DNA of 64,000 nt. Source: Anaerolineales bacterium (GTDB taxonomy: Bacteria > Chloroflexota > Anaerolineae > Anaerolineales > E44-bin32). The first letter of the stretch is position 1. Every line of letters begins with the position of its first letter. Shown piece after piece: positions 146 through 16,576 of this stretch. The stretch covers positions 7,541 through 71,540 of the forward strand of contig JAFGNH010000170.1 in the NCBI GenBank assembly GCA_016927115.1. Reading direction: 5' to 3'. The notes under the pieces were generated by a model that was not told the origin of the DNA, did no database searches, and saw only the letters and a list, made by a program, of their open reading frames with translations. The position numbers and the translations under genes were made by a program.

Positions 146-458
146 GATGGGTCTCCCATCCTGCAGTTTGCGGGAACAGTGGTATGAATTTTATGCTCGA
201 TCTGGGTTCTGCCATCATATCTGCGACCGTATCCCGCCAGCGCAAATAATGTTCCGTTTCCTTATGCCGTCCGGGGGCATCGACTGTCCGATAGACTTCC
301 ACCAGAACAAACGCACATGGATCGTCCTGCTGCTGAACAACATCAAAACGGACAATGCCCTGTTCCTGAAGGCTGCAGCGCGCATTCTCCAGCGTAGCAG
401 CAATAAAATCCTCAACGTAATCAGGTAAAACCTGGACATAGACAAGAACAACGAGCAT
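135..458 (-). CDS. antibiotic-biosynthesis-monooxygenase (ABM) domain protein
   Basis: 107-aa ORF. The size and the pattern ([16 protein letters not shown]...[22 protein letters not shown]) are typical of ABM/YgiN-like ferredoxin-fold monooxygenases. Confidence 0.65.
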
Positions 459-838
459 TCAGGAACCCTCCCGGTAGACTGCTGTGCACATATAGAGCGT
501 CTATCCTTGCGACAGAGTCTCCAGATTAATTACAGTCTAGCCATTCTTCCAGAAGGATGCAACCCTCAGACACGGTATTCATGAATCTGCCGCAGCCTGA
601 CAAAGCAGTTCTGTATTATGTCTGCAAAGCAAGATTCCCAATTCTTGTAACACATAAACCGAATCTTCTCTTCGAGCAGCAACCTGGCAGTACCGAAGCT
701 GGTGGACTTGATTTACGTTACAGAGTAATCTCGCCTGGAATGAATCCATTGGCTGAGTCGCGTCAAATGAAGGTTGCTTCGAACGCTCGTCTCATTCCGA
801 AAAACATTTTGGTGTAACTTCGTTATCTGCCTTTACCT

Positions 839-898
839 TGCGTTTACTTTTCTTTCCGCAATTCTTTACATACCTCACATTACGAATAACTTAGACTT
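839..898 (+). promoter_or_regulatory. conserved upstream element, copy 1 (TGCGTTTACNTTTCTTTCNGCANNNCTTTACA-N20-TTAGNCTT), 48 nt before the 947 start codon
   Basis: The 32-nt block is 27/32 identical to 9779..9810. The 20-nt spacer length and the distal octamer (TTAGACTT vs TTAGTCTT) are the same. The flanking intergenic sequence is not conserved. Confidence 0.4.
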
Positions 899-946
899 GT
901 TTCGAGGTTTGGTCTATTAAATTTATGAGAGAGGTGACGTGGAGCT

Positions 947-2515
947 ATGACAGAACCCACGATCAACAGCCTGTTGAAAAAGGCTGAATCCCACGCGTTA
1001 AACAGCGATTGGCTGAATTCCATAGCTGCCCTGCAGCAGGTACTGCAGCTGGAACCTCAGCATGCAGCAGCAAATTTCACACTCGGCACACTGCTGATGG
1101 AAACCGGCAGTCCTGCAGAAGCGATCTCCTATCTGCGAGCCTGTATCCTGACCACCCCCGATCACGAAGAAGCATCCGTCAGCCTGGCCAAAGCTCTGGC
1201 GCAGACTAATAAATTCCAGGAAGCCGAACGGATCCTGACCGGGATCACAGGGAATAACCCCGAGAATCGCAGCGCATGGAATGCGCTGTCCCAGATTCTG
1301 ATCCTTCAGGATAACCGTATCAGTGAAGCAGTCCAGATTCTGGCGGCACTGGTTCAGACCGATCCTACCGATCCCGATGCTCTGTACCTGATGGGCAAAG
1401 TGTATGAAAGTGTTGAAGATACCAATTCTGCACTTGAAATGTATCACCAGATACTGCGTCACCATCCTTCAGAACAAAGAGCCCAGGCCGCGCTGCAGGG
1501 TCTTGGAGAACCCACTACCGGCATTACTCTGCCTTCGGTATGTTTTATCGGTCCTCCCACATTCTCCACGGAAAACAGGTTGGGGCTTCCCGCAAGAGAG
1601 TTGTCCGGATTGGGCTACCCTGTTTCGGTGCATACATCCTGGGATCAGAGTATGGTGGCTCCTGATATTTTCGTTTTCAGTGAACCTCATTCAAATCCTG
1701 TATTCCTGGAAGCGTTCCTTCAGAGCAAAGCTGCGGGGAAAAAAGCATTTGTCAATCTGGATCTGCACTACCCCTCACTGACCAGCAACCATCCCAGGTA
1801 CCATGAGTCCGGCCCCGGGAACCCGGAAGGTATCCAGGCCCTGGAACATATCCTGGATTCAGCCGATATGCTTTTAACTTCCAGCCAGGCACTGTCGGAT
1901 GCATATCAAAAACCGGGGCGTCCAATCCAGATGTTCCCGCCTGTCTGGAATCCCGGAAACGAATTATGGCATAAACCACCTGAGAAGCGGGAAAAAATTC
2001 ATCTCGGTCTGATAGGTTCTCAGCTGCAGAAAGGTGATGCAGAAGTGTTGAAGGGTCCTGTTGAGACGCTATTTGACCTTAACGAAAATCTTATGCTTAT
2101 GGTACTTGAGGACTTTTCTCTGCTCGACCTTTTCAGCGGGATCAACGAACAGCGCAAGCTGTTCCTCCCCGCTGGTCGTTTCGAAGATTATCCCTATCAG
2201 CTCTCTCATATAGATATCCTGTTGATTCCAGGCGGGGATTCCCCCATCCATCAGACTCGTTCGGATCGGCCTCTGCTGGAAGCCGGTATCCGCCGCATTC
2301 CCTGGGTGGCTTCTCCCTGCCCCTCCTTTAAAGATTGGCATGAAGGGGGTATTCTGATCGAGAAACCGCTGGATTGGTTATCAACTCTGGAAAACCTGAT
2401 CGCCGGGGAAGAATTACGTTCTGTGCTTGGTGAAGCCGGAAGCCGGCAGGCACAGAGCCGCACTATAAGGCAGTCCATTTCGAGATGGCAGGAACTGATC
2501 CGGAGCGTACTCTGA
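947..2515 (+). CDS. TPR-repeat protein with C-terminal GT-B-like (glycosyltransferase-like) domain, paralog 1
   Basis: 522-aa ORF. The N-terminus has TPR-like repeats (LQQVLQLEPQHAAANFTLG..., AISYLRACILTTPDHEEA). The C-terminus (SDRPLLEAGIRRIPWVASPCPSFKDW) is clearly homologous to the C-termini of the ORFs at 9913 and 11586. Confidence 0.6.
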   Translation: MTEPTINSLLKKAESHALNSDWLNSIAALQQVLQLEPQHAAANFTLGTLLMETGSPAEAISYLRACILTTPDHEEASVSLAKALAQTNKFQEAERILTGITGNNPENRSAWNALSQILILQDNRISEAVQILAALVQTDPTDPDALYLMGKVYESVEDTNSALEMYHQILRHHPSEQRAQAALQGLGEPTTGITLPSVCFIGPPTFSTENRLGLPARELSGLGYPVSVHTSWDQSMVAPDIFVFSEPHSNPVFLEAFLQSKAAGKKAFVNLDLHYPSLTSNHPRYHESGPGNPEGIQALEHILDSADMLLTSSQALSDAYQKPGRPIQMFPPVWNPGNELWHKPPEKREKIHLGLIGSQLQKGDAEVLKGPVETLFDLNENLMLMVLEDFSLLDLFSGINEQRKLFLPAGRFEDYPYQLSHIDILLIPGGDSPIHQTRSDRPLLEAGIRRIPWVASPCPSFKDWHEGGILIEKPLDWLSTLENLIAGEELRSVLGEAGSRQAQSRTIRQSISRWQELIRSVL

Positions 2516-2550
2516 CACATACACGGATCCGTTCTCTACCGGGAGTCATC

Positions 2551-2727
2551 ATGCAAAAAACCAGTAATCTGAATGAATACTTACAGAAGGCGCTTAACCT
2601 GTTCCAGGAGGTCAAACTGGATGAATCAAGAATGTGGATTGACCGCATCATCGAGAAAGATCCATATTATTGGCAGTTCCCGATCGGTGGAAAGCAGCCC
2701 CAGCCTGGGTGGTGCCCAGAGAAGTGA
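2551..2727 (+). CDS. small ORF, TPR-like fragment (58 aa); possibly a gene remnant
   Basis: ATG at 2551 is preceded by GGGAG. The peptide MQKTSNLNEYLQKALNLFQEVKLDESRMWIDRIIEKDPYY resembles a single TPR helix pair. It is short and has no other support. Confidence 0.25.
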   Translation: MQKTSNLNEYLQKALNLFQEVKLDESRMWIDRIIEKDPYYWQFPIGGKQPQPGWCPEK

Positions 2728-2828
2728 TTTTTTTAGAATCGACCGCCCGTACGCAGAGGGCCTGGGTGGATGTCTGTCAACAGATTATGGTTCACGGCAA
2801 ATCCGCCCAATAATTAAGGAAAACGGCT

Positions 2829-5800
2829 ATGCAAATAAAACCCTTCCCGAAAAAACTCAGCAACCTCAAGGACCGCTTCAGAGGCCGGCGAGCCTTCATC
2901 CTGGGCAATGGGCCCAGCCTGACCGACCTGGATCTTTCCCACCTGGAGAATGAGTATACCTTCGGCGTGAACAGCATCTTCTACCTGTTTGAAGAAATCG
3001 GATTCAAACCATCTTTCTATGTCGTGGAAGACACGCTTGTGGCAGAAGACCGTGCTGCCGAGATTAATGAGCTCGACGGAATGGTCAAAATTTTCGGGAC
3101 GTATCTAAATTACTGCATAAACGACAGTAAAAATACTTTATGGGCGAACGTTCTTTTTAATTACGAAAACTATTCCGGTTTTCCCCACTTCTCGAGAGAT
3201 GCCTCCCAATGCCTCTGGGTGGGCGGCACCGTATCCTATGTCTGCATGCAGCTCGCCTATATGATGGGTTTTGATCCTGTTTACCTGATCGGCTTCGACC
3301 ACTCATATAACATACCTGACGATGCAGATATCGAAGGCACCATCATCACTTCAACTTCTCAGGATCCCAACCATTTCCACCCCGAATACTTCGGCAAAGG
3401 AAAACGATGGCATCTGCCCAGAGTTGACCGCATGCAGCTGTCTTACCTTAAAGCAAAAAAGGTCTTTGAACAGGATGGCAGGCAGATCGTCAATGCTACG
3501 GCCGGCGGAATGCTTGAGGTCTTCCCCCGTATCGCGTACGCCGCTATTTTTAAGGACGACGAAACGCGCAGCGGTAAGGATCAGAAAACAGCTGGAAAGC
3601 CCTCGAAAAAAGCAGCGGAAACCCCGCCTCCTGATCTCTCCGTTATCGTCTGTACCTACAACAACCATGTTTCTCTGGTAAACACCCTCGAAAGCCTCTA
3701 CCAGCAGAGCCTCTCACCTGACCGGTACGAAGTGCTGGTAGTGGATAATAATTCCGATGACCAGACAAAAGCTATATCAACGTCCTTCCCCCGTTGTAAA
3801 TATGTATTTGAGGAGAAACAGGGACTTGCCCAGGCACGAAACACGGGCATCGCTGAAGCAACCGGCCGCATAATCGCCTTTATCGATGATGATGCGGAAG
3901 CTGATTTCGAATGGCTCAGCAGAATTCTTGCCGCTTTTGAAAAAAACGAAAACATTTGGGCCGCGGGCGGGAAAGCCCTGCCGATCTGGGACGCAGAAAA
4001 GCCTGCCTGGCTTACCGAAACCTATTACCGTTCCCTGAGCCTGCTGGACTGGGGTGAAAATATCCGGCCGCTGGCCTGGCCGGAAAGGATCATCGGGACA
4101 AATTGCGCATTTCGTAAAGCAGTCTTCGAGGAAATCGGACGCTTCCAGACAGACCTTGGACGGGTCGGTTCTGTGCTGCTCGGTAATGAGGATACAGAAA
4201 TCCAGGAACGAATCCACGAAACCGGGCACCAGGTTCTCTACGTGCCTGATGCAATCGTTCACCACCACGTACCTGCAGATCGAATGACAGAGGCATATCT
4301 CCAGAAGCGGGATGAAGGGCACAGAATCTCGCAGCAGATCCTGCAGCTGCGCACAGAGGGCAAAGAAGCAGAAGCAAAAAAGATGGCGGAGAATTATATA
4401 CTCCAGCAGCAGCTTAAGGAACATGAAGCTACTATCAACCGCACCCTTCCTCAGTCGAACCTCAGACTGGCAACCTACAAGGATATCCATCGTGGGCAGC
4501 GCTGTGTGATCATCGGAAACGGACCCAGTCTGAACGACATGGATCTCTCCTTCCTGAAAAACGAAATTACCTTCGGTACCAATCGGATCTATCTGGGTTT
4601 CGAGCGCTTCGGTTTTACACCGGATTACTACCTTTCCATTAATCCGCTTGTGATCGAACAGAGTACAGAGGAAATCCTGGCCGTTCCCGCGCCAAAATTC
4701 CTCAGCCTGCATGGGATCAAACATATCCCTGAAGATCGCGAGGATGTAATGTACCTCCAGAGTGTGGACAGCCCGATTTTTTCTCGTGATCCTCGCTCAG
4801 GAATCTGGGAAGGATATACCGTTACCTATGCAGCGCTTCAGCTTGCCTACTATATGGGATTCTCCGAGATTTACCTGATTGGCTGTGATCACAGCTTCGC
4901 CACGACCGGCCCTGCCAATGCCGAAATCACCTCACAGGGAAAAGACCCGAATCATTTTGATTCTTCCTATTTCGGCAAGGGAACACGCTGGCATCTGCCC
5001 GACCTGGTTAACTCCGAGATGGCATACGGCCTGGCGAGGATGGTGTATGAGGCGGAAGGACGGCACGTATACGATGCAACGCTGAATGGAAAATTGAAGG
5101 TATTTCCGAAAGTGGATTATCGTGAATTCTTCCTCGATTCCCCCCCGGATAAAGAAATTCCTGCAAAACTTCAAACAGGTGAAACCATACAAGGGTCTCC
5201 GATCCTGGTCAGCGCCCTGGTATCCACATATAACGATGAGAAGCTGCTGAGAGCCTGCCTGGATGATCTTGAAAATCAGACTATCGCTGATCGAATGGAA
5301 ATCATTGTGATCGACAGCGGTTCCGAGCAGAATGAAGCTGCCATCGTTGCGGATTTCCAGGAACGGTACGCAAATATCCTGTATATCCGCACAGAGCGTG
5401 AGAGCCTGTACCAGGCGTGGAACCGCGGCATTCTGAAAGCCCGTGGCCGGTATATCACCAACGCAAATACTGACGACAGTCACCACCCGGAAGCGCTGGA
5501 AAAACTGGTCGCCGCACTGGAAACACATCCGGAAGCAGATCTGGCATATGCCGACTGCCAGTGGAGCGCCAGGCCGAATGATTCCTTCAACTCAGCCGAC
5601 ACTCTGCGTGACATCCATTATCCAGCCTTCCACCCCGCCCTGAACATGCTTTACTGCCCTCTCGGCCCTCATCCTGTCTGGCGCAGAAAAACATTTGAAA
5701 AGATCGGCCTGTTTGATGCACGCTTCAAAGCAGCCGGTGATTACGAATTCCTGCTTCGCTTTACCGCTGCCGGACTGAATGCAGTTCATGTACCCGAATT

Positions 5801-8800
5801 ACTGAGCGTTTTCTATCAGAACACCAGCGGGCTGACACTCGGTGCCAATGTGTCCGAAGAAGAGAACATGCGCATCCTGAACCGCTACCGCTCCTCTACC
5901 CCTATCCAATCGATCTGCCGGGTCACACCTGGCGATAAAACCAGCGAAGCGCTGGCATGGACTGCACTCGGAAATCAGGCCATCCGTTACCAGGTCCCCT
6001 GGCTTGATGAACCTGTCTCAGACCCGAACTATGCTGCTTACTGCTACCTTAAAGCAATCGAAACAGAGCCCATCATACCAGCGCTGAACAACCTGATCGC
6101 TGTGCTGGGCGCCATGGGGAACTGGGATCAGTGTGAAGCTCTTCTGGCCCAGCTTCCACCCGGAGAAATGCCCGAAATGCGACGTACAGTGACACAACGC
6201 GAGGTGCTGCAGCTGCTGCCTGTCGACATCGAACCCGCTGTGCAGCCGCTTTCCTGTCAAGTGGAACAACCGGAGCCTGCAGTAAGACCGCACAGTTCTC
6301 CGTCCAGCAGTTCAGCTCCCGAGGGATTCAACGTTATCAGCTACGCCAGCGGCAACCTGGGTATCGGTGTAACCGCCCGCAATGTCATCCAGCTTCTGCT
6401 TGACCACGGGTATCCTGTTTCCATCCTCGACATCGATCCCGGATTCGGCCGCGGCGGGAAAGACCTGCGCTTCCAGATGCATACCGTCCCCAATCCGGAA
6501 GATCTGCCTCACTCGATCAACCTCTTCATTCTCCCGCCCGGGGATCTCAGCGCTGTTCTGCAGCAGGCAGGAAGCCGCTTCTCCATGCAGCAGCGGTTGA
6601 ACGCCGCCTTCAGTATGTGGGAACTCCCTCGACTTCCCAGGGATTGGATTCCGACCCTTGAAGCAATGGATGTATTGATCGCGGAATCCGCCTTCATCGA
6701 GCATGCATTCAGTTTCAATCTCTCCGGTGTACACACAATCGCCGCCGACCATCCGCTCTATCTGCCGGATCGAATTCAGCCCAATCGTGCCCGGTTCGGC
6801 CTTCCTGAGGATGGCTGCCTGTTCATTACCAGCTTTGAACCATTCAGTGATCCCCAGCGCAAAAATCCGATGGCGGTGGTGCAGGCATTCGAAATGGCTT
6901 TCAAGCAAGAAAATAACACTCATCTGATCCTCAAGCTGAATAATGCCCAGCATGAAGGATCGTTCCATCCACTGGTTGAAGCGCTCCAGAAGCGCTGTCT
7001 GGCAAACCCTGACATCCATATCCTTAGCGAGACACTCACATATCGGGAAGTGCTGGAGTTATATGCCAGTTGTGACAGCTTTGTCTCGCTCCACCGTGCT
7101 GAAGGGCTCGGCCTGGGCCCCATGGAAGCGATGGCTCTCGGAAAACCTGTCATCGCTACCGGATGGTCGGGGAATTTGAGCTATATGAACCATACCAATG
7201 CCTGTTTGGTCGGGTATCGGCTCATCCCGGTTGATGGCACGATTCCGGCTTACAACCGGGAACGACTGGGTAGTGGAGCTGTGTGGGCTGACCCTGACCC
7301 GGCAGAAGCAGCTGCCTGGATGCGCCGCCTTGCCGAAAATCCCGAACTCCGAAGCACGATCGGCGGGAAGGCACAGCAAGCGATCCGGAACCACCACAAA
7401 AAAGCTGAACAAGCGTTGTTTATCGAGGAACTGCATGCCATCTGGCGGCAAAAACAGCTGTTTACGAATTTCCAACCGGTCAGCAGCTTCCATACAGAAT
7501 CATCAGTACAAAAAGCTGCAGATCTTAAAGATGCATCTGTAGATATCGTCATCCCTGTCTACGGACAGGCCGACCTGCTCAAGCGCTGTGTGAACAGCGT
7601 GCTGGAAACGACAGAAAAAGCACACCTGATCCTGGTCGATGACTGCAGTCCGGACAGTGAAATTCAGGAAGTTTTCTCCACCTGGGAAAACAACCCGCGC
7701 GTCACACTGGCTCGTACGCTTCAGAACTCCGGCTTTATCGGGTCTACACGACTGGGGGCAGGCATCGGTAACGCGCCTTTCATCCTGTTTCTCAACTCCG
7801 ACACAGAGGCCCCGGAAGCCGGATGGCTGGAGGCCCTTATCCCTGAAGAACCGGATATCGCCGTCACCGGTGCAAAACTGCTGTACCCGCCCGACGCGCC
7901 CGAGCCTTTTGCCGGAACGATCCAGCATGCCGGTGTAGCCCGAAATAACCTTGGCGTTCCGTACCACCCATTCATCGGCCAGCCCGGAACTATCCCGGAA
8001 GCATCGCTGGCAAAAGATATCAACGCGATAACCGGAGCCTGCTTCCTTGTTCGTCGTGAAGTCTGGGAACGGCTGGGAGGCTGGAATCCCGCTTTTGGAC
8101 GTGGTGTGTATGAGGATGTTGATTTCTGCTGGAGAGCTCGTTCACAGGGCTTCCGTGTCCGTTATAAGCCGGGTGCTGTGCTGTATCACCATGAAAGCGC
8201 CAGTCGGAGCGAGAATGGCCGACATTCCCTTAACGAACATATGTCCGCGAACCTGTCTACACTTCTGGAAAGCTGGCCGGGTATTACTTCCGATGAAGCG
8301 CTCTTTTACGCTCCGGAAGTCATCTCAGGCTGGCGACAGGCGGAACAACTGCTGCAGCGTGCACAGAGAGAGCTTTCTGAAGGAAAATTCCAGGCTGCAG
8401 TGCAGACCATGCAGTTAGCTGTGAAGGCAGCACCAAATCAGCCTGAAGTCCTGATTGGCTATGCACAGCTTCTCCTCCAGCAAAACAAGCACAAACCGGC
8501 CCTCGAGTCCCTTTATGCTGCGGTAGCCAATGCTCCCACACACTGGAGCGCACGGTTCCTGCTGATGGATACCCTCATCAACACACACAACGCTGCTGAA
8601 GCCTGGCAGCAAAGCCAGATCCTGCTGCACTATTTCCCCGAAAACGAGGAAATAAAACAGCGCAGAAGGCAGATCCTGTCCATGGACCCCACCCTGGTGT
8701 CTCCGAGCAGCACATCCCGTGCAGAACAACTGCTCGAAAAGCTCCTGCAGTCAGAAGATATGGTTGCCCTGCTGGAAGAACATAGAGAGGAATTGGATGG

Positions 8801-9410
8801 AACATTCCTCAGCCTTGTCCAGGAGTATGTGAATACAGCTGAAAAACAGGGTCATTTCGAAGTAGCCGCAGCCATGACAAACCTTATGGTTTATGTTGAG
8901 CAAGTATTGGCTTCCAGCTCTTCCGGTCTGGAAAAACTCAATCCGGATCAGATTCTCAATTATCTGCTCGATGCAGCAGACCCGGTGCAGGCACTCGTTG
9001 ATACAGAGCCATTCTTTACCGATGCTCTCCTCGACCATATCGAAGAGCAGGCTTTCCACTCCGCAACAAGCGGGAACAAGGGGATGTCTGCCGGCTACCA
9101 TGAACTCGCTGATTATGTCCGTGATGTCCTGCAGAAAACGAACGGAAGGGGAAGCCTCCCCGATGCAGAAATCTTGCTGCAGGAAATCCTTGCCGCTGAG
9201 GACATCCTTACTGTTCTGCAGAAGAATGAACACAGGTTGACACCCGCACTTCTGCACCTTGTTCAGGACAACATCCATGAGGCAGAAGCCCATGGCATGG
9301 AGGAAGTTGCCCGGGCACTCGAACATCTCGAAACATACCTGCAGCATCTTCTCGTTCCAGCCGCGCTGTCGGCTGCAGATAATGCCGAAATGACAAAAGA
9401 AGAAGACTGA
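2829..9410 (+). CDS. giant multi-domain glycosyltransferase (2 Maf/DUF115-like + 3 GT2 + 1 GT4 + TPR + C-terminal repeats), 2193 aa
   Basis: A single uninterrupted ORF. Two GNGPSL...GGTV/GYTV..QLAY.MGF..YLIG.DHS modules each carry DPNHF..YFGKG.RWHLP. Three GT2 signatures are present (VIVCTYNN..DDDAE; LVSTYND..NTDD; VIPVYG..LVDDCSPD..NSDTE). One GT4 EX7E motif is present (EGLGLGPME..GKPVIAT). See the domain sub-features. Confidence 0.85.
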   Translation: MQIKPFPKKLSNLKDRFRGRRAFILGNGPSLTDLDLSHLENEYTFGVNSIFYLFEEIGFKPSFYVVEDTLVAEDRAAEINELDGMVKIFGTYLNYCINDSKNTLWANVLFNYENYSGFPHFSRDASQCLWVGGTVSYVCMQLAYMMGFDPVYLIGFDHSYNIPDDADIEGTIITSTSQDPNHFHPEYFGKGKRWHLPRVDRMQLSYLKAKKVFEQDGRQIVNATAGGMLEVFPRIAYAAIFKDDETRSGKDQKTAGKPSKKAAETPPPDLSVIVCTYNNHVSLVNTLESLYQQSLSPDRYEVLVVDNNSDDQTKAISTSFPRCKYVFEEKQGLAQARNTGIAEATGRIIAFIDDDAEADFEWLSRILAAFEKNENIWAAGGKALPIWDAEKPAWLTETYYRSLSLLDWGENIRPLAWPERIIGTNCAFRKAVFEEIGRFQTDLGRVGSVLLGNEDTEIQERIHETGHQVLYVPDAIVHHHVPADRMTEAYLQKRDEGHRISQQILQLRTEGKEAEAKKMAENYILQQQLKEHEATINRTLPQSNLRLATYKDIHRGQRCVIIGNGPSLNDMDLSFLKNEITFGTNRIYLGFERFGFTPDYYLSINPLVIEQSTEEILAVPAPKFLSLHGIKHIPEDREDVMYLQSVDSPIFSRDPRSGIWEGYTVTYAALQLAYYMGFSEIYLIGCDHSFATTGPANAEITSQGKDPNHFDSSYFGKGTRWHLPDLVNSEMAYGLARMVYEAEGRHVYDATLNGKLKVFPKVDYREFFLDSPPDKEIPAKLQTGETIQGSPILVSALVSTYNDEKLLRACLDDLENQTIADRMEIIVIDSGSEQNEAAIVADFQERYANILYIRTERESLYQAWNRGILKARGRYITNANTDDSHHPEALEKLVAALETHPEADLAYADCQWSARPNDSFNSADTLRDIHYPAFHPALNMLYCPLGPHPVWRRKTFEKIGLFDARFKAAGDYEFLLRFTAAGLNAVHVPELLSVFYQNTSGLTLGANVSEEENMRILNRYRSSTPIQSICRVTPGDKTSEALAWTALGNQAIRYQVPWLDEPVSDPNYAAYCYLKAIETEPIIPALNNLIAVLGAMGNWDQCEALLAQLPPGEMPEMRRTVTQREVLQLLPVDIEPAVQPLSCQVEQPEPAVRPHSSPSSSSAPEGFNVISYASGNLGIGVTARNVIQLLLDHGYPVSILDIDPGFGRGGKDLRFQMHTVPNPEDLPHSINLFILPPGDLSAVLQQAGSRFSMQQRLNAAFSMWELPRLPRDWIPTLEAMDVLIAESAFIEHAFSFNLSGVHTIAADHPLYLPDRIQPNRARFGLPEDGCLFITSFEPFSDPQRKNPMAVVQAFEMAFKQENNTHLILKLNNAQHEGSFHPLVEALQKRCLANPDIHILSETLTYREVLELYASCDSFVSLHRAEGLGLGPMEAMALGKPVIATGWSGNLSYMNHTNACLVGYRLIPVDGTIPAYNRERLGSGAVWADPDPAEAAAWMRRLAENPELRSTIGGKAQQAIRNHHKKAEQALFIEELHAIWRQKQLFTNFQPVSSFHTESSVQKAADLKDASVDIVIPVYGQADLLKRCVNSVLETTEKAHLILVDDCSPDSEIQEVFSTWENNPRVTLARTLQNSGFIGSTRLGAGIGNAPFILFLNSDTEAPEAGWLEALIPEEPDIAVTGAKLLYPPDAPEPFAGTIQHAGVARNNLGVPYHPFIGQPGTIPEASLAKDINAITGACFLVRREVWERLGGWNPAFGRGVYEDVDFCWRARSQGFRVRYKPGAVLYHHESASRSENGRHSLNEHMSANLSTLLESWPGITSDEALFYAPEVISGWRQAEQLLQRAQRELSEGKFQAAVQTMQLAVKAAPNQPEVLIGYAQLLLQQNKHKPALESLYAAVANAPTHWSARFLLMDTLINTHNAAEAWQQSQILLHYFPENEEIKQRRRQILSMDPTLVSPSSTSRAEQLLEKLLQSEDMVALLEEHREELDGTFLSLVQEYVNTAEKQGHFEVAAAMTNLMVYVEQVLASSSSGLEKLNPDQILNYLLDAADPVQALVDTEPFFTDALLDHIEEQAFHSATSGNKGMSAGYHELADYVRDVLQKTNGRGSLPDAEILLQEILAAEDILTVLQKNEHRLTPALLHLVQDNIHEAEAHGMEEVARALEHLETYLQHLLVPAALSAADNAEMTKEED
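2880..3550 (+). other. domain: Maf/DUF115 (MptE-like) or GT42-like nonulosonic-acid-transferase-type module, copy 1
   Basis: RAFILGNGPSLTDLDLSHL..FGVN...GGTVSYVCMQLAYMMGFDPVYLIGFDHSY...QDPNHFHPEYFGKGKRWHLP. Confidence 0.55.
3636..4300 (+). other. domain: GT2 (GT-A fold) glycosyltransferase, copy 1
   Basis: LSVIVCTYNNHVSLVNTLESLYQQS..VLVVDNNSDDQT..GLAQARNTGIAEATGRIIAFIDDDAEAD. Confidence 0.7.
4465..5132 (+). other. domain: Maf/DUF115-like module, copy 2
   Basis: RCVIIGNGPSLNDMDLSFL..FGTN...GYTVTYAALQLAYYMGFSEIYLIGCDHSF...KDPNHFDSSYFGKGTRWHLP. It is colinear with copy 1. Confidence 0.55.
5199..5830 (+). other. domain: GT2 glycosyltransferase, copy 2
   Basis: ILVSALVSTYNDEKLLRACLDDLENQT..IIVIDSGSEQNE..LYQAWNRGILKARGRYITNANTDD. 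Confidence 0.65.
6325..7445 (+). other. domain: GT4/GT1-type (GT-B fold) glycosyltransferase
   Basis: FNVISYASGNLGIGVTARN... then SLHRAEGLGLGPMEAMALGKPVIATGWSGNLSYM (EX7E motif). Confidence 0.65.
7539..8210 (+). other. domain: GT2 glycosyltransferase, copy 3
   Basis: VDIVIPVYGQADLLKRCVNSVLETT..LILVDDCSPD..NSGFIGSTRLG..FLNSDTEA..ITGACFLVRREVWERLGGW..YEDVDFCWRARSQGF. Confidence 0.7.
8381..8650 (+). other. domain: TPR-like repeats
   Basis: GKFQAAVQTMQLAVKAAPNQPEVLIGYAQLLLQQNKHKPALESLYAAVANAPTHWSARFLLMDTLI.. Confidence 0.5.
8721..9407 (+). repeat. three tandem ~73-aa helical repeats at the C-terminus of the giant protein (starts near 8721, 8943, 9162)
   Basis: AEQLLEKLLQSEDMVALLEEH..FLSLVQEYV..; PDQILNYLLDAADPVQALVDT..LLDHIEEQA..; AEILLQEILAAEDILTVLQKN..LLHLVQDNI... 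They share the pattern x-[ED]-x-[IL]L-x2-[IL]L-x2-[ED]D/P-x3-[AV]L. Confidence 0.5.
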
Positions 9411-9778
9411 GAAATCCGTGCAAAATAAAAAGCGAGTGGCAGGAATGCCTGTTGACACAAACGGGCCTTGAAAATAATCCCGTCTGGATCCTCTCGCATG
9501 CCTGAAAGAGCAGCAGCAGGTGCCCGGATTTTCGACCAATTCGGAGATGGAAAATGTGCCTCAACCTGACGATAAATCACCCTGATTCAACTGACTGAGA
9601 ACACGCTTGATAAAAGCAGCACTGGAGTATCTGACACGGGCCAGGAAAACTGACCCGGCAAACCTGGAAACCTTTCAAGTATCCGAATGGTTTCTGCACA
9701 GTTGCACAGGTTTCTACGGGGCAGGCTGACTGACACGATAAACATCAATTTTTATCATGTTTCACCTATCCTTTAGGG

Positions 9779-9838
9779 TGCGTTTACGTTTCTTTCAGCA
9801 CCCCTTTACAGACCGTTCAGCAATTGGCTGTTAGTCTT
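9779..9838 (+). promoter_or_regulatory. conserved upstream element, copy 2, 74 nt before the 9913 start codon
   Basis: See 839..898. The architecture is identical: a 32-nt block, N20, then TTAGTCTT. Confidence 0.4.
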
Positions 9839-9912
9839 AGGAATGATGTAGTAGCTTCGATTCTCCATATCTAATCATATACAGTGGGATCCGATGGGCT
9901 GGTTAATTTTAC

Positions 9913-11589
9913 ATGTCTGATCTTGAATTTCGCAAACAACTTGGGCGATCACATCTTAATGCAAACAAACTGGGGCTCGCCCTGAGTATTTTTGCAGAGC
10001 TGGTTGAGGAATACCCGGATGATGTTGAAAGCCACATCATCCTGGGTGACTGCTATCTGGCTGGTGCAGATTATCAGTCCGCACAGCAGTTATATCAGCA
10101 AGCCCTGCAGATAGATCCCGACTCTGCTGATATTATTCGACGGCTGCAATTGACCCAGGCAGAATTGCTTAAGCAGGAACATTTGCCTGAATCATTCAGG
10201 CTTCCGACCAGCAAAGACAGCCTGTCGATGCTCCTGCAGGAACTTACCGGGAGAACCGGTCCGGTTGCAGACAACGAAATCCGCAGTGCAGCAGATCTGC
10301 TGCAGGAGATGGTCAACAGCAGCCAACCCGCAGAAGTTGTTGCCAGGCATCTCGACCAGATCGATGTCCTCCTGCCCGCTCTTCTGGAATTGAACATCAA
10401 ACAGGCCGAAGCAGATGGGAAACCCGACCTCGCTGCCGCACTGCAAATTCTTCAGGAGAATATCCAGCTCCAGAAAAAGAGTTTCCCGACCTACCCCCAG
10501 GCTCCCATGATTGAGAACCTTTCGGAGCCAGACAGAAACATTCGTTTGCTGATCATCCACCCTGCCGGATATCCATCCGCGCGACAGTTACAGATCCGGC
10601 AATCTCTCCAGCATATTAAAACTCTGGAACTGGTTGACATGGATCAGGATGTGGATTCGGCACTACCTGAAGAAATTGATCTTGTGCTGGCGTTCAACCC
10701 ACACACTGATGCAGGAATCATCAAAAAACTGGCGGACCTGGCATCAGGAAATATCCCGGTCGTTCTGGATCTGGAAACCGATTTCGAAAATCTCCCGATC
10801 CACCACCCACAGTACCCTCTGCTGGGATTGGGAACAGCAGCCCGTGCCAAAACGTACTCCGCCTGCCTATCTCTGGCTGACGTTATAACAACACCCTCCT
10901 ACATCCTGGGAGCCCAGCTGAAAACAATGGGGCATGAAACCGTTTTCCTCCCCGATGGATGGGATCCAGAGAATCCACTATGGCAAAAGGAATCTCCCCA
11001 GCGACAGACCATCAACATTGGCTGGATAGGTTCTCCGGGTTATCTTGAAGATATTGCTTCGGTCCGGCGATCCATTGTCCGCATACTCAGGGAATTTCCC
11101 CAGACGCAGCTTGTCATCAGCGGCGATCCACAGGTTTATCAGCTTTTCGATAATCTGCCAGAATACCGGCGGGTATTCCTTCCTCAGGTAGACCAAGAGG
11201 ATTTTCCATCTCTCCTTGCCCAACTGGATATCCGTCTTGTTCCGATGCGCAACACCGTATATAACCGATCTTCATCTGATCGCCCTCTCCTTGAAGCAGG
11301 TATACGTAAGACTCCCTGGATTGCATCCCCTATCCCTGCTTTTAAGAACTGGGCGGCTGGAGGACGGATCTTACACAATCGGGAGGATTGGTACACCTGT
11401 CTGAAAACACTCATTCAGGATCCCAATTTAATCCGGATGCTCGGTTATGAAGGATTCCAGACAGCACAGGAACGGTCTGTTATTGAACTCAGTAAACAGT
11501 GGCAAAAGCTGCTTGTCAGCCTGATGTCACGATCGACACAGCTTGTCCGGGAAAGCGGCCAAACAACTGTATCAGAAAGGGCTTCATGA
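9913..11589 (+). CDS. TPR-repeat protein with C-terminal GT-B-like domain, paralog 2
   Basis: 558-aa ORF with N-terminal TPRs (ALSIFAELVEEYPDDVESHIILGDCYLAGADYQSAQQLYQQALQIDPD). The C-terminus SDRPLLEAGIRKTPWIASPIPAFKNW is near-identical in pattern to the 947 protein. Confidence 0.6.
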   Translation: MSDLEFRKQLGRSHLNANKLGLALSIFAELVEEYPDDVESHIILGDCYLAGADYQSAQQLYQQALQIDPDSADIIRRLQLTQAELLKQEHLPESFRLPTSKDSLSMLLQELTGRTGPVADNEIRSAADLLQEMVNSSQPAEVVARHLDQIDVLLPALLELNIKQAEADGKPDLAAALQILQENIQLQKKSFPTYPQAPMIENLSEPDRNIRLLIIHPAGYPSARQLQIRQSLQHIKTLELVDMDQDVDSALPEEIDLVLAFNPHTDAGIIKKLADLASGNIPVVLDLETDFENLPIHHPQYPLLGLGTAARAKTYSACLSLADVITTPSYILGAQLKTMGHETVFLPDGWDPENPLWQKESPQRQTINIGWIGSPGYLEDIASVRRSIVRILREFPQTQLVISGDPQVYQLFDNLPEYRRVFLPQVDQEDFPSLLAQLDIRLVPMRNTVYNRSSSDRPLLEAGIRKTPWIASPIPAFKNWAAGGRILHNREDWYTCLKTLIQDPNLIRMLGYEGFQTAQERSVIELSKQWQKLLVSLMSRSTQLVRESGQTTVSERAS

Positions 11590-12722
11590 AAATCGTTTAT
11601 GTCTATGCAGACAATCAGCGTGAGTGGAATTGCAGCGAATGGCGCTGTGCCGTCCCTGCTCGTGCAATCAATCGCACAAAAGGGCACCAGGCTGTTTTAC
11701 TCTGGATAGAAGATTTTATGAGGACATCGCCAGCGGCAGTGGATACCTGTCAAGATGCAGACCTGATTGTAGTTCAGCGCAACCTCTTTGGTCCAACACT
11801 GGCAGCTATACAGCACTGGAAAGCGCGCGACCGGGTGGTTATTGCGGATTTTGATGATGCCTATGATCTGATGCCCCCCAGTGTAGGCAGCTACGATTTC
11901 TGGAGGCACGGGATCGCCAGTGAAAATGGTACTCCTCTCGAGAATGTCCAGCGTGTCGATCCACCACCTATTACTCAGTTCCGCTGGGGTCTTCGTCTGG
12001 TGCATGCAGCAACTGTGCCTTCCAAACGGCTTGCAGACGACTGGTCAACATACACTTCAATAAACTACGTTCCAAACTACATTGATCTTGAAAAATACAC
12101 ATCCGCTGCGCCTGTTCCACACGAAGGAATACATATAGGCTGGGGAGGAAGTCTCTCTCATTTCGACAGCTTTAATCATCAAGGTGTGTTGACAGCATTG
12201 AAAAGGATTTGTCAGAGCAGACCGCAGGTGAAAATTCTGATTAATGGGTCCAACAGGGAAATCTTTGATCTGCTGCCCGTTCCTCAGAACCAGAAAATCC
12301 TTCGACCCTGGGTCCCCTATGATCAATGGGCACGCGAACTGGCTACCTATGACATTGGACTTGCGCCCTTGAATGGCCCATATGATGACCGTCGCAGCTG
12401 GATAAAGGTGCTGGAATACCTTGTTTTGAAAATCCCCTGGGTCGCATCTGAAGGTCCGGCTTATCATGAACTGCGACCGTACGGCTGGCTGGTGCAAAAC
12501 AGTGCCCAGTCATGGGAAAGAGTTCTGTTGGATATGATTGATCATATCGATGACTATCGTGCAGAGGCAAGCAGGGAAGCATATCTATATGGAATCAGTC
12601 AGAGCATAGATGGCAATATTGATAAGTCACTCTCAATTTATGCAGAAATTATCGAAAAAGCCAGAGGGGTCAGAGTCAATCCATCCATTAAGGTAGAAGC
12701 TGAAACAAAGCGTGGGAGCTAA
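11586..12722 (+). CDS. GT-B-like glycosyltransferase-like protein, paralog 3 (no TPR region)
   Basis: The ATG at 11586 overlaps the upstream stop (ATGA), so I prefer it over the ORF-track start at 11499. The sequence MKIVYVYADN... then IGWGGSL..WIKVLEYLVLKIPWVASEGPAY aligns with the C-terminal halves of the 947 and 9913 proteins. Confidence 0.6.
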   Translation: MKIVYVYADNQREWNCSEWRCAVPARAINRTKGHQAVLLWIEDFMRTSPAAVDTCQDADLIVVQRNLFGPTLAAIQHWKARDRVVIADFDDAYDLMPPSVGSYDFWRHGIASENGTPLENVQRVDPPPITQFRWGLRLVHAATVPSKRLADDWSTYTSINYVPNYIDLEKYTSAAPVPHEGIHIGWGGSLSHFDSFNHQGVLTALKRICQSRPQVKILINGSNREIFDLLPVPQNQKILRPWVPYDQWARELATYDIGLAPLNGPYDDRRSWIKVLEYLVLKIPWVASEGPAYHELRPYGWLVQNSAQSWERVLLDMIDHIDDYRAEASREAYLYGISQSIDGNIDKSLSIYAEIIEKARGVRVNPSIKVEAETKRGS

Positions 12723-12726
12723 GAAA

Positions 12727-13521
12727 ATGTTAGGTTCAAAAAAAGCAGCAATCGATTTTGATGAGCAGCCTTTACCTTCCGCAACACTTCAGATTCGAAT
12801 CCCGGCAGGCGAATTCATCATGGGAACCAGCAACCAGCAGATCCAGAGTCTGTTGAGGACTGAAGAATGGGCAAACGAATGGATAGAGAAGGATCTGTTC
12901 AAGATTGAACAACCACAGCACATAATCGCTCTTCCGGCCTACTCAATCGCTCGTACTCCGGTCATCAATCATGAATATCAGGAATTTATCCTTGACACGA
13001 ACCATCGCGTACCTCGCCATTGGATGGGTTTTTCCTTTCCTGAAGAAACTGAAAACCACCCGGTAACGGAAGTATCTCTCGCCGACGCACTCGCCTTCTG
13101 CAGCTGGCTCTCCAAAAAGACAGGTTCTACCTTCCGCCTCCCCACTGAAGCCGAATGGGAACGAGCGGCACGGGGCGATGACGGGCGTATGTATCCCTGG
13201 GGAAATGAATTCGATCCCTGGCGCTGCAACACGAAGGAGCGCGGTAAATCCGGTGCCACACCGATTTTGAGCTACTCACCGGGTGGAGACAGCCCCTGGG
13301 GTGCGGCCGATATGTCCGGGAATGTGATGGAATGGACACACAGCACTATGCAGCCATATCCATTCAAACAAATACCGCCTCAATCCGGCAAGGAGGAATG
13401 TGTGGTAAGAGGAGGATCATGGTATTACAGCCGACGTCTGGCACGATGCTCTTCACGTGAAACAGTTCTATCCACACTCACCTCCCCGGCTCTTGGCTTC
13501 CGGGTTGTTCAGACAGACTGA
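12727..13521 (+). CDS. formylglycine-generating-enzyme (FGE/SUMF1, DUF323) domain protein
   Basis: HPVTEVSLADALAFCSWLSKKTGSTFRLPTEAEWERAARG..YPWGNEF...GNVMEWT...VRGGSWYYSRRLARCSSR is the characteristic FGE-sulfatase fold signature. I prefer the ATG at 12727 over the GTG at 12712. Confidence 0.7.
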   Translation: MLGSKKAAIDFDEQPLPSATLQIRIPAGEFIMGTSNQQIQSLLRTEEWANEWIEKDLFKIEQPQHIIALPAYSIARTPVINHEYQEFILDTNHRVPRHWMGFSFPEETENHPVTEVSLADALAFCSWLSKKTGSTFRLPTEAEWERAARGDDGRMYPWGNEFDPWRCNTKERGKSGATPILSYSPGGDSPWGAADMSGNVMEWTHSTMQPYPFKQIPPQSGKEECVVRGGSWYYSRRLARCSSRETVLSTLTSPALGFRVVQTD

Positions 13522-13586
13522 CATAGTACACTCCCCACCTGTACCTGATCCGTAACAGCAGGACCGTAAATTACACCTGACTCCCG

Positions 13587-13618
13587 ACCGGTGCGTTGCA
13601 CCGGTTATTTCTATCGTT
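13587..13618 (+). terminator. intrinsic terminator after the glycosylation operon
   Basis: Perfect 8-bp stem ACCGGTGC-gtt-GCACCGGT (13587..13605) followed by the T-rich run TATTTCTATCGTT. Confidence 0.55.
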
Positions 13619-13698
13619 GTAAGATAAACCCTTCACGCGATTCTCCAGCCGGATCCCCCCTGCCAAAAAGATATTTACGGTTCTTTTACGCTCGAGTC

Positions 13699-13725
13699 TA
13701 AAGTCTTTCCAGCCCCAACCGATAA
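13699..13725 (+). promoter_or_regulatory. sigma-28 (FliA/SigD) promoter of the flagellin gene
   Basis: cTAAAg-N15-aCCGATAA compared with the consensus TAAA-N15-GCCGATAA. It lies about 180 nt upstream of the flagellin ATG. Confidence 0.7.
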
Positions 13726-13865
13726 CAGAGCATAACAGAAACAAATGAAGGTAATTCTTATTCGGAGGTGTCCATCGAATAATTACTTCAGCAAGACCAA
13801 CCTTGACGCTGAACTTGGGGCTCCAGTCAGTGTCGCCTCTCTCGAATTGGAGCCAAACCAAATCT

Positions 13866-13900
13866 TAGGGAAGGATCCCTATTTTTCGATAACAAGGAGG
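13866..13900 (+). promoter_or_regulatory. putative CsrA binding sites in the flagellin 5' leader (GGA hairpin plus GGA in the Shine-Dalgarno)
   Basis: UAGGGA-AGGA-UCCCUA is a perfect 6-bp stem presenting AGGA in its loop (13866..13881). The SD AAGGAGG at 13894..13900 contains a second GGA. csrA and fliW are both in this window. Confidence 0.5.
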
Positions 13901-13905
13901 TTATC

Positions 13906-14760
13906 ATGGCAGGTGTAGACCTAACTCGTATTGCTGGAAATATCCAGGCACTGAATTCACTGAACTCACTGAACAAGATCAACAATCAGCTGGCAGCTCA
14001 TCAGCTGCGGCTCTCGACCGGCAAGCAGATCAATGAAGCGGCCGACGATCCTGCGGGCATGAGTATTGCCACAACTTTCGATATCCGCCGCCAGAGCCTG
14101 TCCACGGTTCTCAAATCCATTGGTGACGGCAAGAACTTGCTTGCTACCGCTGAAGGTGGTTTGACCAAGATCCAGGACATTCTGGTCAAGATGAAGAATA
14201 AAGCCCTCGAAGCACAGGGCGACACCATCGGTGCTGACGAGAAGGCAGCCATCCAGAAACAGGTTGTCTCCTTCAGAAACGAAATCGATGATATCGTCAG
14301 CGCCACTGAATGGAACGGCACAAAGCTGCTTTCCGGTTCCGCAGGCAGCGGGACCCCAAGCTCTCTGGCCTTCCTGACCGGCGCAGATGGCAGCACCACA
14401 TCCTTCGATCTCGGACAGGGTTTCGCGATCAGCGGCAGCGGCACATCCGGCATCAACCTGAGCGCCATCGATGTCAGCAGCAGCGCCTCAGCAGCGATGA
14501 CAGCTATCAATTCGGCCATCGATCTGCTCAAGACCGGTATTGCCGATGTCGGCTCCTTCACCGCTCGTTTGACCTTCAAAGAAGAAGCTCTCACAATCGC
14601 TCATGCCAACACCGAAGCGGCATACAACCGGATTATGAACGCCGATATGGCAAACGAACAGGTGCAGGCAAGCAAGCTGATGATCCTGCAGCAAACAGCA
14701 ACGGCCATGCTTTCTCAGGCCAACATGGCTCCACAGTTCGTTCTGTCTCTGTTCCAGTAA
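13906..14760 (+). CDS. fliC: flagellin (short form, 284 aa)
   Basis: The N-terminus LNSLNKINNQLAAHQLRLSTGKQINEAADDPAGMSIA and the C-terminus NRIMNADMANEQVQASKLMILQQTATAMLSQANMAPQFVLSLFQ are canonical flagellin D0/D1 segments. Confidence 0.95.
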   Translation: MAGVDLTRIAGNIQALNSLNSLNKINNQLAAHQLRLSTGKQINEAADDPAGMSIATTFDIRRQSLSTVLKSIGDGKNLLATAEGGLTKIQDILVKMKNKALEAQGDTIGADEKAAIQKQVVSFRNEIDDIVSATEWNGTKLLSGSAGSGTPSSLAFLTGADGSTTSFDLGQGFAISGSGTSGINLSAIDVSSSASAAMTAINSAIDLLKTGIADVGSFTARLTFKEEALTIAHANTEAAYNRIMNADMANEQVQASKLMILQQTATAMLSQANMAPQFVLSLFQ

Positions 14761-14783
14761 GCTTGAAACACACGATAGTCCAC

Positions 14784-14805: not shown

Positions 14806-14848
14806 GTACTAGTTTGAAACCAGAACCGGTAACTCCTGAGGGAACCTG

Positions 14849-16519: not shown

Positions 16520-16576
16520 ACAGAAAATTATTGAACAAGGAAGTTCAATTCGAACGGAAAACCAAGGAGGGTAGTT

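Follow-up and report, generated by a model that had tools for sequence, protein, structure and literature searches.

What do five genes on one strand, directly upstream of a flagellin gene, do in a bacterium of the phylum Chloroflexota, and is the flagellin their substrate? The question is raised by a stretch of 64,000 nucleotides (nt) of contig JAFGNH010000170.1 (hereafter the window), taken from a metagenome-assembled genome (MAG) of an Anaerolineales bacterium, where five open reading frames (ORF1 to ORF5) border a complete flagellar regulon. A sequence-only reading had taken them for a flagellin-glycosylation island, built of glycosyltransferase (GT) genes, some with tetratricopeptide repeats (TPR), and a gene of the formylglycine-generating enzyme (FGE) type. 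Its observation holds as a whole and its interpretation in part: the genes are indeed consecutive, all on the plus strand between 947 and 13521, and a Pfam search returns the domains that it had named. We think it probable that the cluster encodes a cytoplasmic system for flagellin O-glycosylation in this flagellated bacterium. The conserved unit is the set ORF3-ORF4-ORF5, which the sequence-only reading did not single out and which has not been described previously. The genes in question, with the proposed acceptor, are:

947-2515, plus strand: ORF1, 522 amino acids (aa), an N-terminal TPR region (aa 1-190) and a C-terminal GT-B domain paralogous to that of ORF3
2829-9410, plus strand: ORF2, 2193 aa
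9913-11589, plus strand: ORF3, 558 aa, TPR (aa 1-89), helical linker (100-188) and GT-B domain (205-540), from Pfam TPR matches and an AlphaFold2 (AF2) model
11586-12722 (alternative start 11499), plus strand: ORF4, 378 aa
12712-13521, plus strand: ORF5, about 265 aa
13906-14760, plus strand: flagellin, 284 aa, with Flagellin_N and Flagellin_C (Pfam), the proposed acceptor

The order of genes in related genomes is what sets the core apart. Protein look-ups of ORF3 relatives (38-63% identity) and ORF4 relatives (39-75%) gave seven contexts in eight locus records, checked by tblastn, two of which, L004 and L005, carry one and the same arrangement from different samples. In all seven contexts the order is TPR-GT-B gene, GT-B gene, FGE-like gene, with a short TPR gene between the latter two in L007, and each time the triad is found inside a flagellar or chemotaxis cluster: immediately 5′ of fliC-fliD-flaG-fliS in L003, L006, L008 and L009, close by in L007, and between che genes and a two-component system with flbD-motAB-fliLM in L004/L005 and in the locus of protein P0029. 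Scanning metagenomes with the profile of the ORF4 family extended the comparison to 79 loci, 52 of which are close, i.e., have an ORF4 homolog at least 49% identical. A TPR-bearing paralog, ORF3- or ORF1-like, lies immediately 5′ of ORF4 in 38/39 close loci with enough sequence, and an FGE-like gene immediately 3′ of it in 35/42. Where at least 3 kb of downstream sequence is available, fliC follows in 17 of 31 close loci, mostly starting 1.0-1.2 kb past ORF4, and a flagellar or che gene of some kind is present in 22 of these 31. The 27 distant ORF4 relatives (34-48% identity) sit among enzymes of nucleoside-diphosphate (NDP)-sugar metabolism and mostly have neither TPR nor FGE partner nor flagellar neighbours; this joint loss indicates that, within a small GT family, the flagellum-linked triad forms a specialised clade. 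Glycosyltransferase genes kept beside flagellin or other flagellar genes across genomes are the mark of a flagellin glycosylation island, and this is what we observe. Consistent linkage to exopolysaccharide or S-layer genes, which the sequence-only reading had named as one of the observations that would refute it, is not found for the core. The best reading is a flagellum-linked glycosylation locus, its core genes keeping synteny with fliC-fliD-flaG-fliS or with other genes of the flagellum in most of the related loci.

ORF4, a stand-alone GT-B paralog, is more conserved than any other gene of the cluster. Its relatives number 407, with 339 representatives at E≤1e-30 among the 1.84 billion searched, and wherever a source name is given among the 120 relatives listed of the 407, it is a chloroflexotal one. 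In Pfam, both ORF3 and ORF4 match Glyco_trans_1_4 below threshold (PF13692, 20.5-22.9 bits against a cut-off of 27), and the GT domain of ORF1 has no match at all. The AF2 models of the two have pLDDT values of 82.5 on average for ORF3, mostly above 90 in its GT half, and of 89.6 for ORF4. In Foldseek searches the whole chain of ORF3 finds SPINDLY and OGT first, which likewise consist of TPR and GT-B (E 1e-14, TM 0.32-0.41), and its GT half finds the GT4 enzymes PimA and MshA (TMt 0.59-0.63). ORF4 finds PimA, MshA, BshA and BA1558 (TM 0.66-0.70, E 1e-12 to 1e-13), in a list that also holds the protein O-GlcNAc (N-acetylglucosamine) transferases SdgB and GtfA. As modelled, then, both ORF4 and the GT domain of ORF3 have a GT4-like GT-B fold. 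They are paralogs (hhalign probability 99.6%, E 2e-24) with common motifs, (F/L)D(D/x)D(A/F)(Y/E), TVPS, IGW(G/I)GS and DI(G/R)L(A/V)P, and a common helix, (RRSWIKVLEY / SDRPLLEAGIR)..IPW(V/I)AS.

The C-terminal motif that had been read from all three GT-B paralogs, SDRPLLEAGIR..PW(V/I)ASP.P.FK.W, is exact in ORF1 and ORF3, but ORF4 carries it in a diverged form, DDRRSWIKVLEY..KIPWVAS.GPAY. It had been called unplaceable, which needs correcting for its position and not for its family. The motif falls inside the weak Glyco_trans_1_4 match and, on the models, sits in the C-terminal Rossmann half of the GT4-like GT-B fold, where it is the family version of the donor-binding helix region. The family itself lies below every Pfam GT threshold; the ORF4 profile, the only one of the family searched against the PDB, returned nothing at E≤1; and by sequence the ORF1/ORF3/ORF4 GT-B family is still unplaced. 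Of the E-x7-E donor-binding motif of GT4 enzymes, the second glutamate is conserved in the sequence alignments (E277 in ORF4, within LLEAG in ORF3), and the residue eight positions upstream is arginine in ORF4 and serine in ORF3.

A further feature of the ORF4 family concerns its N-terminus (11586-11670, aa 1-28), which reads EWRC-A-V-P-A-R, with C21 and P24 invariant and A22, A25 and R26 nearly so. The prediction places C-A-V-P-A-R in helix alpha-1, within the N-terminal Rossmann half; with one residue too many, it resembles the CxPxR motif that true FGEs oxidise, and its gene adjoins one of FGE fold. We considered P0278, P0292 and P0321, which are long members of the family, as 'Rosetta-stone' fusions of ORF4 with an FGE; they have no similarity to ORF5.

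ORF5 covers positions 5-254 of the 255 of the FGE-sulfatase profile (PF03781, E 5e-47). Its best match in the PDB is ToxD (7spq, E 3e-39, 40-45% identity over 220 aa), followed by CalU17 and OvsA, and true FGEs are matched at 2e-16 only. Seven orthologs share the segments EQPQH, WERAAR, YPWG..FDPWRCNT, YSPxGDS, GNVxEWT and RGGSWYYSxxLARC, the last of which reads RGGSWYYS(R/H)(R/K)LARC in 7/7. At the position expected from human and bacterial FGE structures, the Cys-x4-Cys copper site of true FGEs, which carries their catalytic cysteines, is absent from all seven. Having the full PF03781 fold, ORF5 resembles the whole family (FGE, pFGE, the C-domains of EgtB/OvoA, PvdO, ToxD, CalU17, PorK/GldK), but unlike EgtB/OvoA it has no DinB domain and unlike PorK/GldK no signal peptide or lipobox; its N-terminus is not hydrophobic. 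The window has no sulfatase and no other Cys-containing target was seen nearby, the six flagellins checked being without cysteine. As the catalytic Cys pair is missing, the flagellins are Cys-free and a sulfatase is lacking, we reject the idea that ORF5 is a true FGE with flagellin or a sulfatase as its substrate. With low confidence we ascribe to it a tailoring (oxidative) or a peptide-holding role; a literature search returned no paper linking the FGE family to flagellin glycosylation.

The two genes upstream of the core are variable accessories. The TPR region of ORF1 is a TPR_19 array (PF14559, E 1e-23) and its C-terminal 320 aa have no Pfam match; the protein is 30% identical to ORF3 over 439 aa (E 6e-45), and a copy of it is found in some related loci only (L006, the P0029 locus, L036, L037, L058 and L060). 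ORF2 is by sequence a variable mosaic accessory, in which Pfam finds two MptE-like/DUF115 domains (PF01973), three GT2 (PF00535, E 4e-74), one GT1/GT4 and TPR, arranged as follows:

2853-3557, plus strand: module 1, MptE-like/DUF115 (Maf-type), aa 9-243 (PF01973, E 1.5e-31, in two stretches)
3630-4280, plus strand: module 2, GT2 a, aa 268-484 (PF00535/PF13641)
4464-5138, plus strand: module 3, second MptE-like/DUF115, aa 546-770 (the second PF01973 stretch)
5205-5828, plus strand: module 4, GT2 b, aa 793-1000 (PF10111/PF00535), 45% identical to the accessory GT of L004
6321-7448, plus strand: module 5, GT1/GT4 (GT-B), aa about 1165-1540 (PF00534, E 3e-10; PF13692)
7512-8198, plus strand: module 6, GT2 c, aa 1562-1790 (PF00535/PF13632/PF13506)
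8337-8657, plus strand: TPR segment, aa 1837-1943 (TPR_19, E 6e-8)
8706-9368, plus strand: C-terminal helical repeats, about 3 x 65 aa (aa about 1960-2180), without a Pfam family

Modules 1 and 3 align with each other (local score 467) and have GNGPSL and DPNHF in common; around GNGPSL, module 1 weakly matches the sialyltransferase Cst-II (E 0.02), and GT2 a weakly matches the Listeria flagellin O-GlcNAc transferase GmaR in the PDB (E 6e-5). Near-full-length relatives of ORF2 are two only (P0158 and P0159, 59-77% identity). Elsewhere its parts turn up in other combinations: aa 778-1001 and 1958-2175 match a 1396-aa GT of L004, aa 1164-1917 are 41% identical to a 1004-aa GT4-GT2-TPR accessory protein of L008, and the counterpart in L009 is an MptE-GT2-GT2 protein of 1014 aa. 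At the same position other loci have genes for an NDP-sugar epimerase/dehydratase (L006), adenosine phosphosulfate (APS) kinase and ATP sulfurylase (L004/L005), sulfotransferases (L008 and L009) or a GT92 (L007). The presence of Maf/DUF115 modules next to flagellin had been offered as the hallmark of a flagellin O-glycosylation locus; the modules are there, but ORF2 is the least conserved gene of the cluster, and they are no conserved hallmark here. Giant combinations of MptE, GT2, methyltransferase, radical-SAM and TPR parts are widespread (Thermodesulfobacteriota, Planctomycetota, Cyanobacteria, Hyphomonadaceae). We looked at the genomic context of three such relatives: an MptE/GT2/TPR giant of a Thermodesulfobacteriota MAG adjoins flagellin-flaF-flbT, with genes for cytidine monophosphate (CMP)-sugars, one of Planctomycetota has no flagellar context, and one of Henriciella lies in a polysaccharide locus, beside rmlABCD and a Wzm/Wzt ABC transporter. 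Given these mixed contexts, Maf-type modules are suggestive but not diagnostic, and ORF2 as a flagellin-specific marker is ruled out by its relatives in cyanobacteria and polysaccharide loci.

Some smaller observations attach to these accessory genes. The ~65-aa helical module is present three times at the C-terminus of ORF2 and once in the linker between TPR and GT in ORF3 (10210-10476, aa 100-188); by BLASTP, ORF2 aa 2095-2172 are 32-36% identical to ORF3 aa 102-185 (E 1e-4 to 1e-7), and the module also ends accessory giant GTs in L004, L014, L061 and L068. These proteins may share it for docking or oligomerisation. A trio of genes, for a GT2, a CTP_transf_3 (CMP-sugar synthetase-like) protein and a 2-hydroxyacid dehydrogenase, occurs beside giant MptE/GT2 proteins in two settings, the flagellin-linked Thermodesulfobacteriota locus and the ABC-transporter polysaccharide locus of Henriciella (L010, 4574-7844; L012, 22287-24958). 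Genes for sulfation appear repeatedly in the variable part of related clusters (L004/L005, 1-1635; L008, 1429-3728; L009, 1-662), as APS kinase with ATP sulfurylase, Sulfotransfer_1/3 domains and an SGSH_C-like protein, and sulfation functions are also fused into ORF2-like giants (P0203, P0210-P0212, P0235 and P0259). The window has none of these genes, but in the relatives they hint at sulfated flagellar glycans.

ORF3, ORF4 and ORF5 are probably one operon. ORF4 most likely starts at the ATG at 11586, where an independent gene call on the same contig also places it, its ATGA overlapping the stop codon of ORF3; this corrects the start in the sequence-only reading. The 502-nt gap before ORF3 (9411-9912) probably separates an ORF1-ORF2 unit from the core operon, and a second gap of 313 nt inside the cluster (2516-2828) holds a 58-aa ORF (2551-2727) that is called on a sister contig. 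Rfam has no match in 1-20000, both gaps included. The signals that we located are:

9730-9758, plus strand: candidate sigma-70-type promoter, CTGACA-17-TATCAT, 10/12 matches, the regional best and weak evidence
13586-13613, plus strand: intrinsic terminator closing the cluster, a 9-bp stem with 6 GC pairs and a loop of 3, then ATTTCT
13699-13724, plus strand: sigma-28-type fliC promoter, TAAAGT-N14-CCGATA
17415-17440, plus strand: further TAAAGT-N14-CCGATA site, before fliS
43316-43341, minus strand: further TAAAGT-N14-CCGATA site, flgM/flgN region
45252-46127, minus strand: FliA-like sigma factor

TAAAGT-N14-CCGATA has three matches in the window where 0.15 are expected, all of them by flagellar genes, which makes it a credible sigma-28 consensus for this organism. 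A pattern scan of the window found no such promoter ahead of ORF1 or ORF3, and sigma-70-like matches are in total no more frequent than in shuffled sequence. The terminator (its hairpin, 13586-13606, is the best terminator-like one in 400-14000) is followed by the flagellin promoter as had been described, but at about 90 nt and not 80. The 'unusual composition' that had been attributed to the cluster does not show, its GC content being 0.517 against 0.505 in the rest and its tetranucleotide usage not deviant, so the phrase can mean gene content only. The same ordinary values give no support to a horizontally acquired island.

Neither the window nor the 8.5 kb upstream of it holds genes of sugar-nucleotide synthesis. 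Their absence had already been remarked upon in the sequence-only reading, and the added upstream sequence, which encodes HU, an M24 peptidase, a PIN/Phd pair, a radical-SAM protein, TetR, an iron-containing alcohol dehydrogenase and an ABM protein, extends it. The donors must be drawn from housekeeping pools or be made by genes in another part of the genome, and in related loci there are hints of rhamnose (rmlBCD in L041), of other NDP-sugars (the epimerase/dehydratase of L006) and of sulfation. A Pfam scan of the window found no transporter, flippase or polyprenyl-phosphate transferase, and none of the five proteins has a transmembrane segment. Five soluble proteins without lipid-carrier or export genes fit modification in the cytoplasm before type-III export, which is the course taken by all known flagellin O-glycosylation systems.

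Put together, these elements would work in the following way. ORF3 would use its N-terminal TPR and helical linker to dock flagellin that is unfolded or not yet assembled, as FlmG, OGT and SPINDLY do with their clients, and ORF3 and the translationally coupled ORF4, jointly or in turn, would transfer the first sugar or sugars from a housekeeping NDP-sugar to serines and threonines of the short Ser/Thr-rich central segment of the flagellin (54 aa, 35% Ser+Thr). ORF5 would act as a third subunit that tailors the glycan or the site, or holds the peptide, which is the least certain step; ORF1, as the second TPR-GT-B paralog, and ORF2, both lineage-variable, would then extend and diversify the glycan. 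Since no sigma-28 promoter precedes the cluster, the enzymes could possibly be present before flagellin is made. The earlier idea of a multi-step glycan assembly line on the filament protein thus keeps its flagellum-linked locus and its soluble enzymes, but not its distribution of parts, the conserved unit being ORF3-5 and the Maf modules accessory.

The closest architectural analogue of ORF3, not considered in the sequence-only reading, is FlmG of Caulobacter crescentus and Brevundimonas, a protein of 596 aa in which the TPR region (aa 1-313) binds flagellins and the GT-B domain confers specificity for pseudaminic (Pse) or legionaminic (Leg) acid (PMC7591256; bioRxiv 10.1101/2022.03.25.485807). 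By this analogy the proposal that the TPRs are docking modules has a precedent (PMC7591256), and FlmG likewise is made ahead of flagellin (PMC7591256). Like ORF3 it is a single soluble protein of about 550-600 aa with an N-terminal TPR and a C-terminal GT-B domain, encoded by a flagellum-associated gene in a species with short flagellins (about 270-290 aa, which the 284-aa flagellin of the window resembles), and the labour would be split alike, the TPR holding flagellin and the GT-B domain binding the donor. We compared ORF1 and ORF3 with flmG (CCNA_01524), taken from Caulobacter vibrioides via a published primer sequence. BLASTP aligns the TPRs only, the catalytic domains have no detectable similarity, and the GT domain of FlmG is faintly GT9-like (PF01075, E 0.16) whereas those of ORF1, ORF3 and ORF4 are GT4-like; we therefore reject ORF1 and ORF3 as members of the FlmG family and keep FlmG as an analogue. 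Moreover FlmG acts alone, with Pse/Leg pathways, whereas here there is an obligatory second GT-B paralog, usually an FGE-fold partner, and no nonulosonic-acid (NulO) genes nearby.

The other known systems share one or another feature with the cluster. Maf proteins (motility accessory factors), which transfer nonulosonic acids to flagellin in Campylobacter, Helicobacter, Aeromonas, Magnetospirillum, Geobacillus and Clostridium, have the PF01973 domain and a flagellin-adjacent cluster in common with ORF2, whose Maf-type modules also carry the GNGPSL motif of GT42 sialyltransferases. Unlike the stand-alone, three-domain Maf architecture, however, ORF2 has bare domains of ~235 aa fused to GT2/GT4, the first starting at residue 9 with a GT2 directly after it and the second internal, and its Maf-type domain matches no Maf sequence in the PDB. 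Maf loci are linked to nonulosonic-acid genes, whereas no Pse, Leg, Neu or CMP-transferase gene is found in the window or the 8.5 kb upstream, and Maf-type modules are absent from most related loci. GT41 enzymes (human OGT, Arabidopsis SPINDLY, Xanthomonas XcOGT) resemble ORF3 in their TPR array followed by GT-B, and act on Ser/Thr of proteins, but the fit is at TM 0.32-0.41, with no PF13844 (Glyco_transf_41) match and no intervening domain in ORF3, and the GT-B half fits PimA, MshA and BshA better. GtfA/GtfB of streptococcal serine-rich adhesins and SdgA/SdgB are cytoplasmic GT4-type GT-B enzymes acting on Ser-rich segments. GtfA and SdgB are among the structural matches of ORF4, and in these pairs, as with ORF3 and ORF4, paralogous GT-B proteins are encoded side by side, but the likeness is at the level of fold, the targets are others and those systems have no TPR. 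Fgt1/Fgt2 and FgtA of Pseudomonas and Burkholderia and GmaR of Listeria are GT2-type proteins, often multi-domain and TPR-bearing, encoded beside fliC and using ordinary NDP-sugars such as rhamnose or GlcNAc; they lack both a pair of GT4-like paralogs and a partner of FGE fold, and ORF2, with six catalytic modules, is far larger. A literature search for FgtA together with TPR returned no paper.

Several facts weigh against a flagellin O-glycosylation system. The GT activity of the paralogs is read from the fold, with Pfam GT scores below the curated cut-offs; donor-sugar genes are not found locally; and ORF5 is lacking from 7/42 loci, which means that it is not obligatory and is dispensable in some lineages. 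The linkage, strong as it is, does not extend to every locus: within 7-8 kb, nine of the 31 close loci, from about three lineages, are without a flagellar gene, and in several loci the triad stands beside motAB or che genes and not fliC. ORF2-type proteins occur in non-flagellar and polysaccharide loci as well. No paper came up in a full-text literature search that combined Anaerolineae, flagellin and glycosyltransferase, the word stem 'glycosyl' is absent from a paper on chloroflexotal flagellar genomics, and flagellin glycosylation in Chloroflexota is without experimental support to date.

The nine exceptions would suit proteins that serve a non-flagellar glycoconjugate (a cytoplasmic or cell-envelope polysaccharide) or a general protein target, and that came to lie beside flagellar genes by a lineage-specific accident. 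Their neighbours are GT4 with GT2, TPR-methyltransferase, MptE-TPR and rmlBCD genes (the last flanking the triad in L041) and then housekeeping genes; the distant ORF4 relatives among sugar-nucleotide enzymes, and the Henriciella and Planctomycetota relatives of ORF2, point the same way. We nonetheless judge this unlikely, because the 22/31 close loci and 7/7 look-up contexts that are linked to flagellar or chemotaxis genes span ORF4 identities from 39% (L007) to 86%, because export and lipid-carrier machinery is missing from the window while all five proteins are soluble, and because fusion to TPR is typical of protein-directed GTs.

If the target is flagellar, it need not be the filament. 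A hook, cap, junction or motor/stator-associated protein, or several flagellar proteins, would explain why the triad lies beside a two-component system and flbD-motA-motB-fliL-fliM, and not fliC, in L004/L005, the P0029 locus, L025, L046 and L053-L055, and the TPR domains give no sign of which client they bind. This is a slightly less likely proposition again, as the most frequent position of the triad is immediately 5′ of fliC (17/31), and in the well-studied systems the glycosylated flagellar protein is always flagellin (PMC7591256, PMC11339370). That at least one of the GT-B paralogs is catalytically inactive and mainly a regulator or chaperone of flagellin, with glycosylation secondary, has precedents in the anti-repressor function of Listeria GmaR and the non-catalytic partner GtfB of GtfA and would suit the lower mean column identity of ORF3-family GT domains (42% against 66% in ORF4, with few invariant polar residues), the strict pairing of ORF3-type and ORF4 genes (38/39) and the sub-threshold Pfam scores, but is very improbable given the acidic DxD-like segment, TVPS, GWxGS and LE(A/Y) helix that the two paralogs share and the plainly catalytic GT2/GT4 modules of the accessory genes, which make sense only if a glycan is built.

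Flagellin O-glycosylation being the preferred reading, it is tempting to go a step further. The triad might represent a third, undescribed class of flagellin GT system, distinct from Maf and FlmG and so far named only from Chloroflexota, in which a TPR-GT-B protein docks flagellin for a conserved catalytic GT-B, a Cys-less ToxD-like protein carries out an unprecedented step (oxidative tailoring of the glycan or of the acceptor site, or presentation of the peptide) and the giants build lineage-specific glycans, some of them sulfated. In this full form the proposal is tentative, and we would sooner expect some part of it to fail. Proteobacteria, Campylobacterota and Firmicutes are the groups in which flagellin glycosylation has been studied well, and there it is the work of the Maf and FlmG classes and of some GT2-type enzymes; flagella of Chloroflexota have been seen in culture only recently (PMC10284905). 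What draws attention here is the phylum, the FGE-fold partner and the conserved pair of GT-B paralogs, a compact three-gene candidate system whose GT-B family standard hidden Markov models leave unplaced. If a role of the triad in flagellin glycosylation is confirmed, it would add a new family of protein-directed GTs, useful in glyco-engineering as FlmG and Maf are, the ToxD/CalU17-like branch of the FGE superfamily, large and so far orphan, would gain a biological context that can be tested, and the modular giants (Maf, GT2, GT4, methyltransferase, sulfotransferase) would show how the chemistry of the filament surface diversifies, probably under phage or predator pressure.

The flagellar regulon that the cluster borders continues 3′ with genes for flagellin, FliD, FlaG, FliS, a FlgB/C-like rod protein, FliF, G, H, I and J, followed by an SLT-domain protein, FliK and FlgE. 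On the opposite strand are CsrA, FliW, FlgL, FlgK, FlgN, two FlgF/G-like rod proteins and the FliA-like sigma factor, as well as FlhF, FlhA, FlhB, FliR, P, O, N, M and L, MotB, MotA and CheX. Homologs of the L/P-ring proteins FlgH, FlgI and FlgA were not found among the scanned ORFs of at least 150 aa in 16000-58600, which is consistent with a flagellum of monoderm type. The 5′ untranslated region of fliC (13728-13905) holds a hairpin, TAGGGAAGGATCCCTA, at 13866-13881 with GGA in its loop, and a second GGA in the Shine-Dalgarno sequence AAGGAGG (13894-13900). This two-site layout is the one bound by CsrA on the hag mRNA of B. subtilis. Downstream of flgL, FliW is encoded together with a CsrA homolog, MLVLTRRTDEGIVIQDNI... 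(38973-39305 and 39218-40018, both minus strand), and the sequence suggests that a FliW-CsrA-flagellin homeostasis loop operates in this genome. Several sizeable ORFs in or beside the regulon have no Pfam match at E≤1e-4 (28593-29930, plus; 32312-33250, minus; 34114-34704, minus; 35655-36359, plus), and one of these, of 445 aa, lies directly 3′ of flgE. The flagellar cluster is flanked by genes for two HDOD proteins (52255-53106 and 62037-62963, both minus strand) and two CheX (60942-62033, minus strand).

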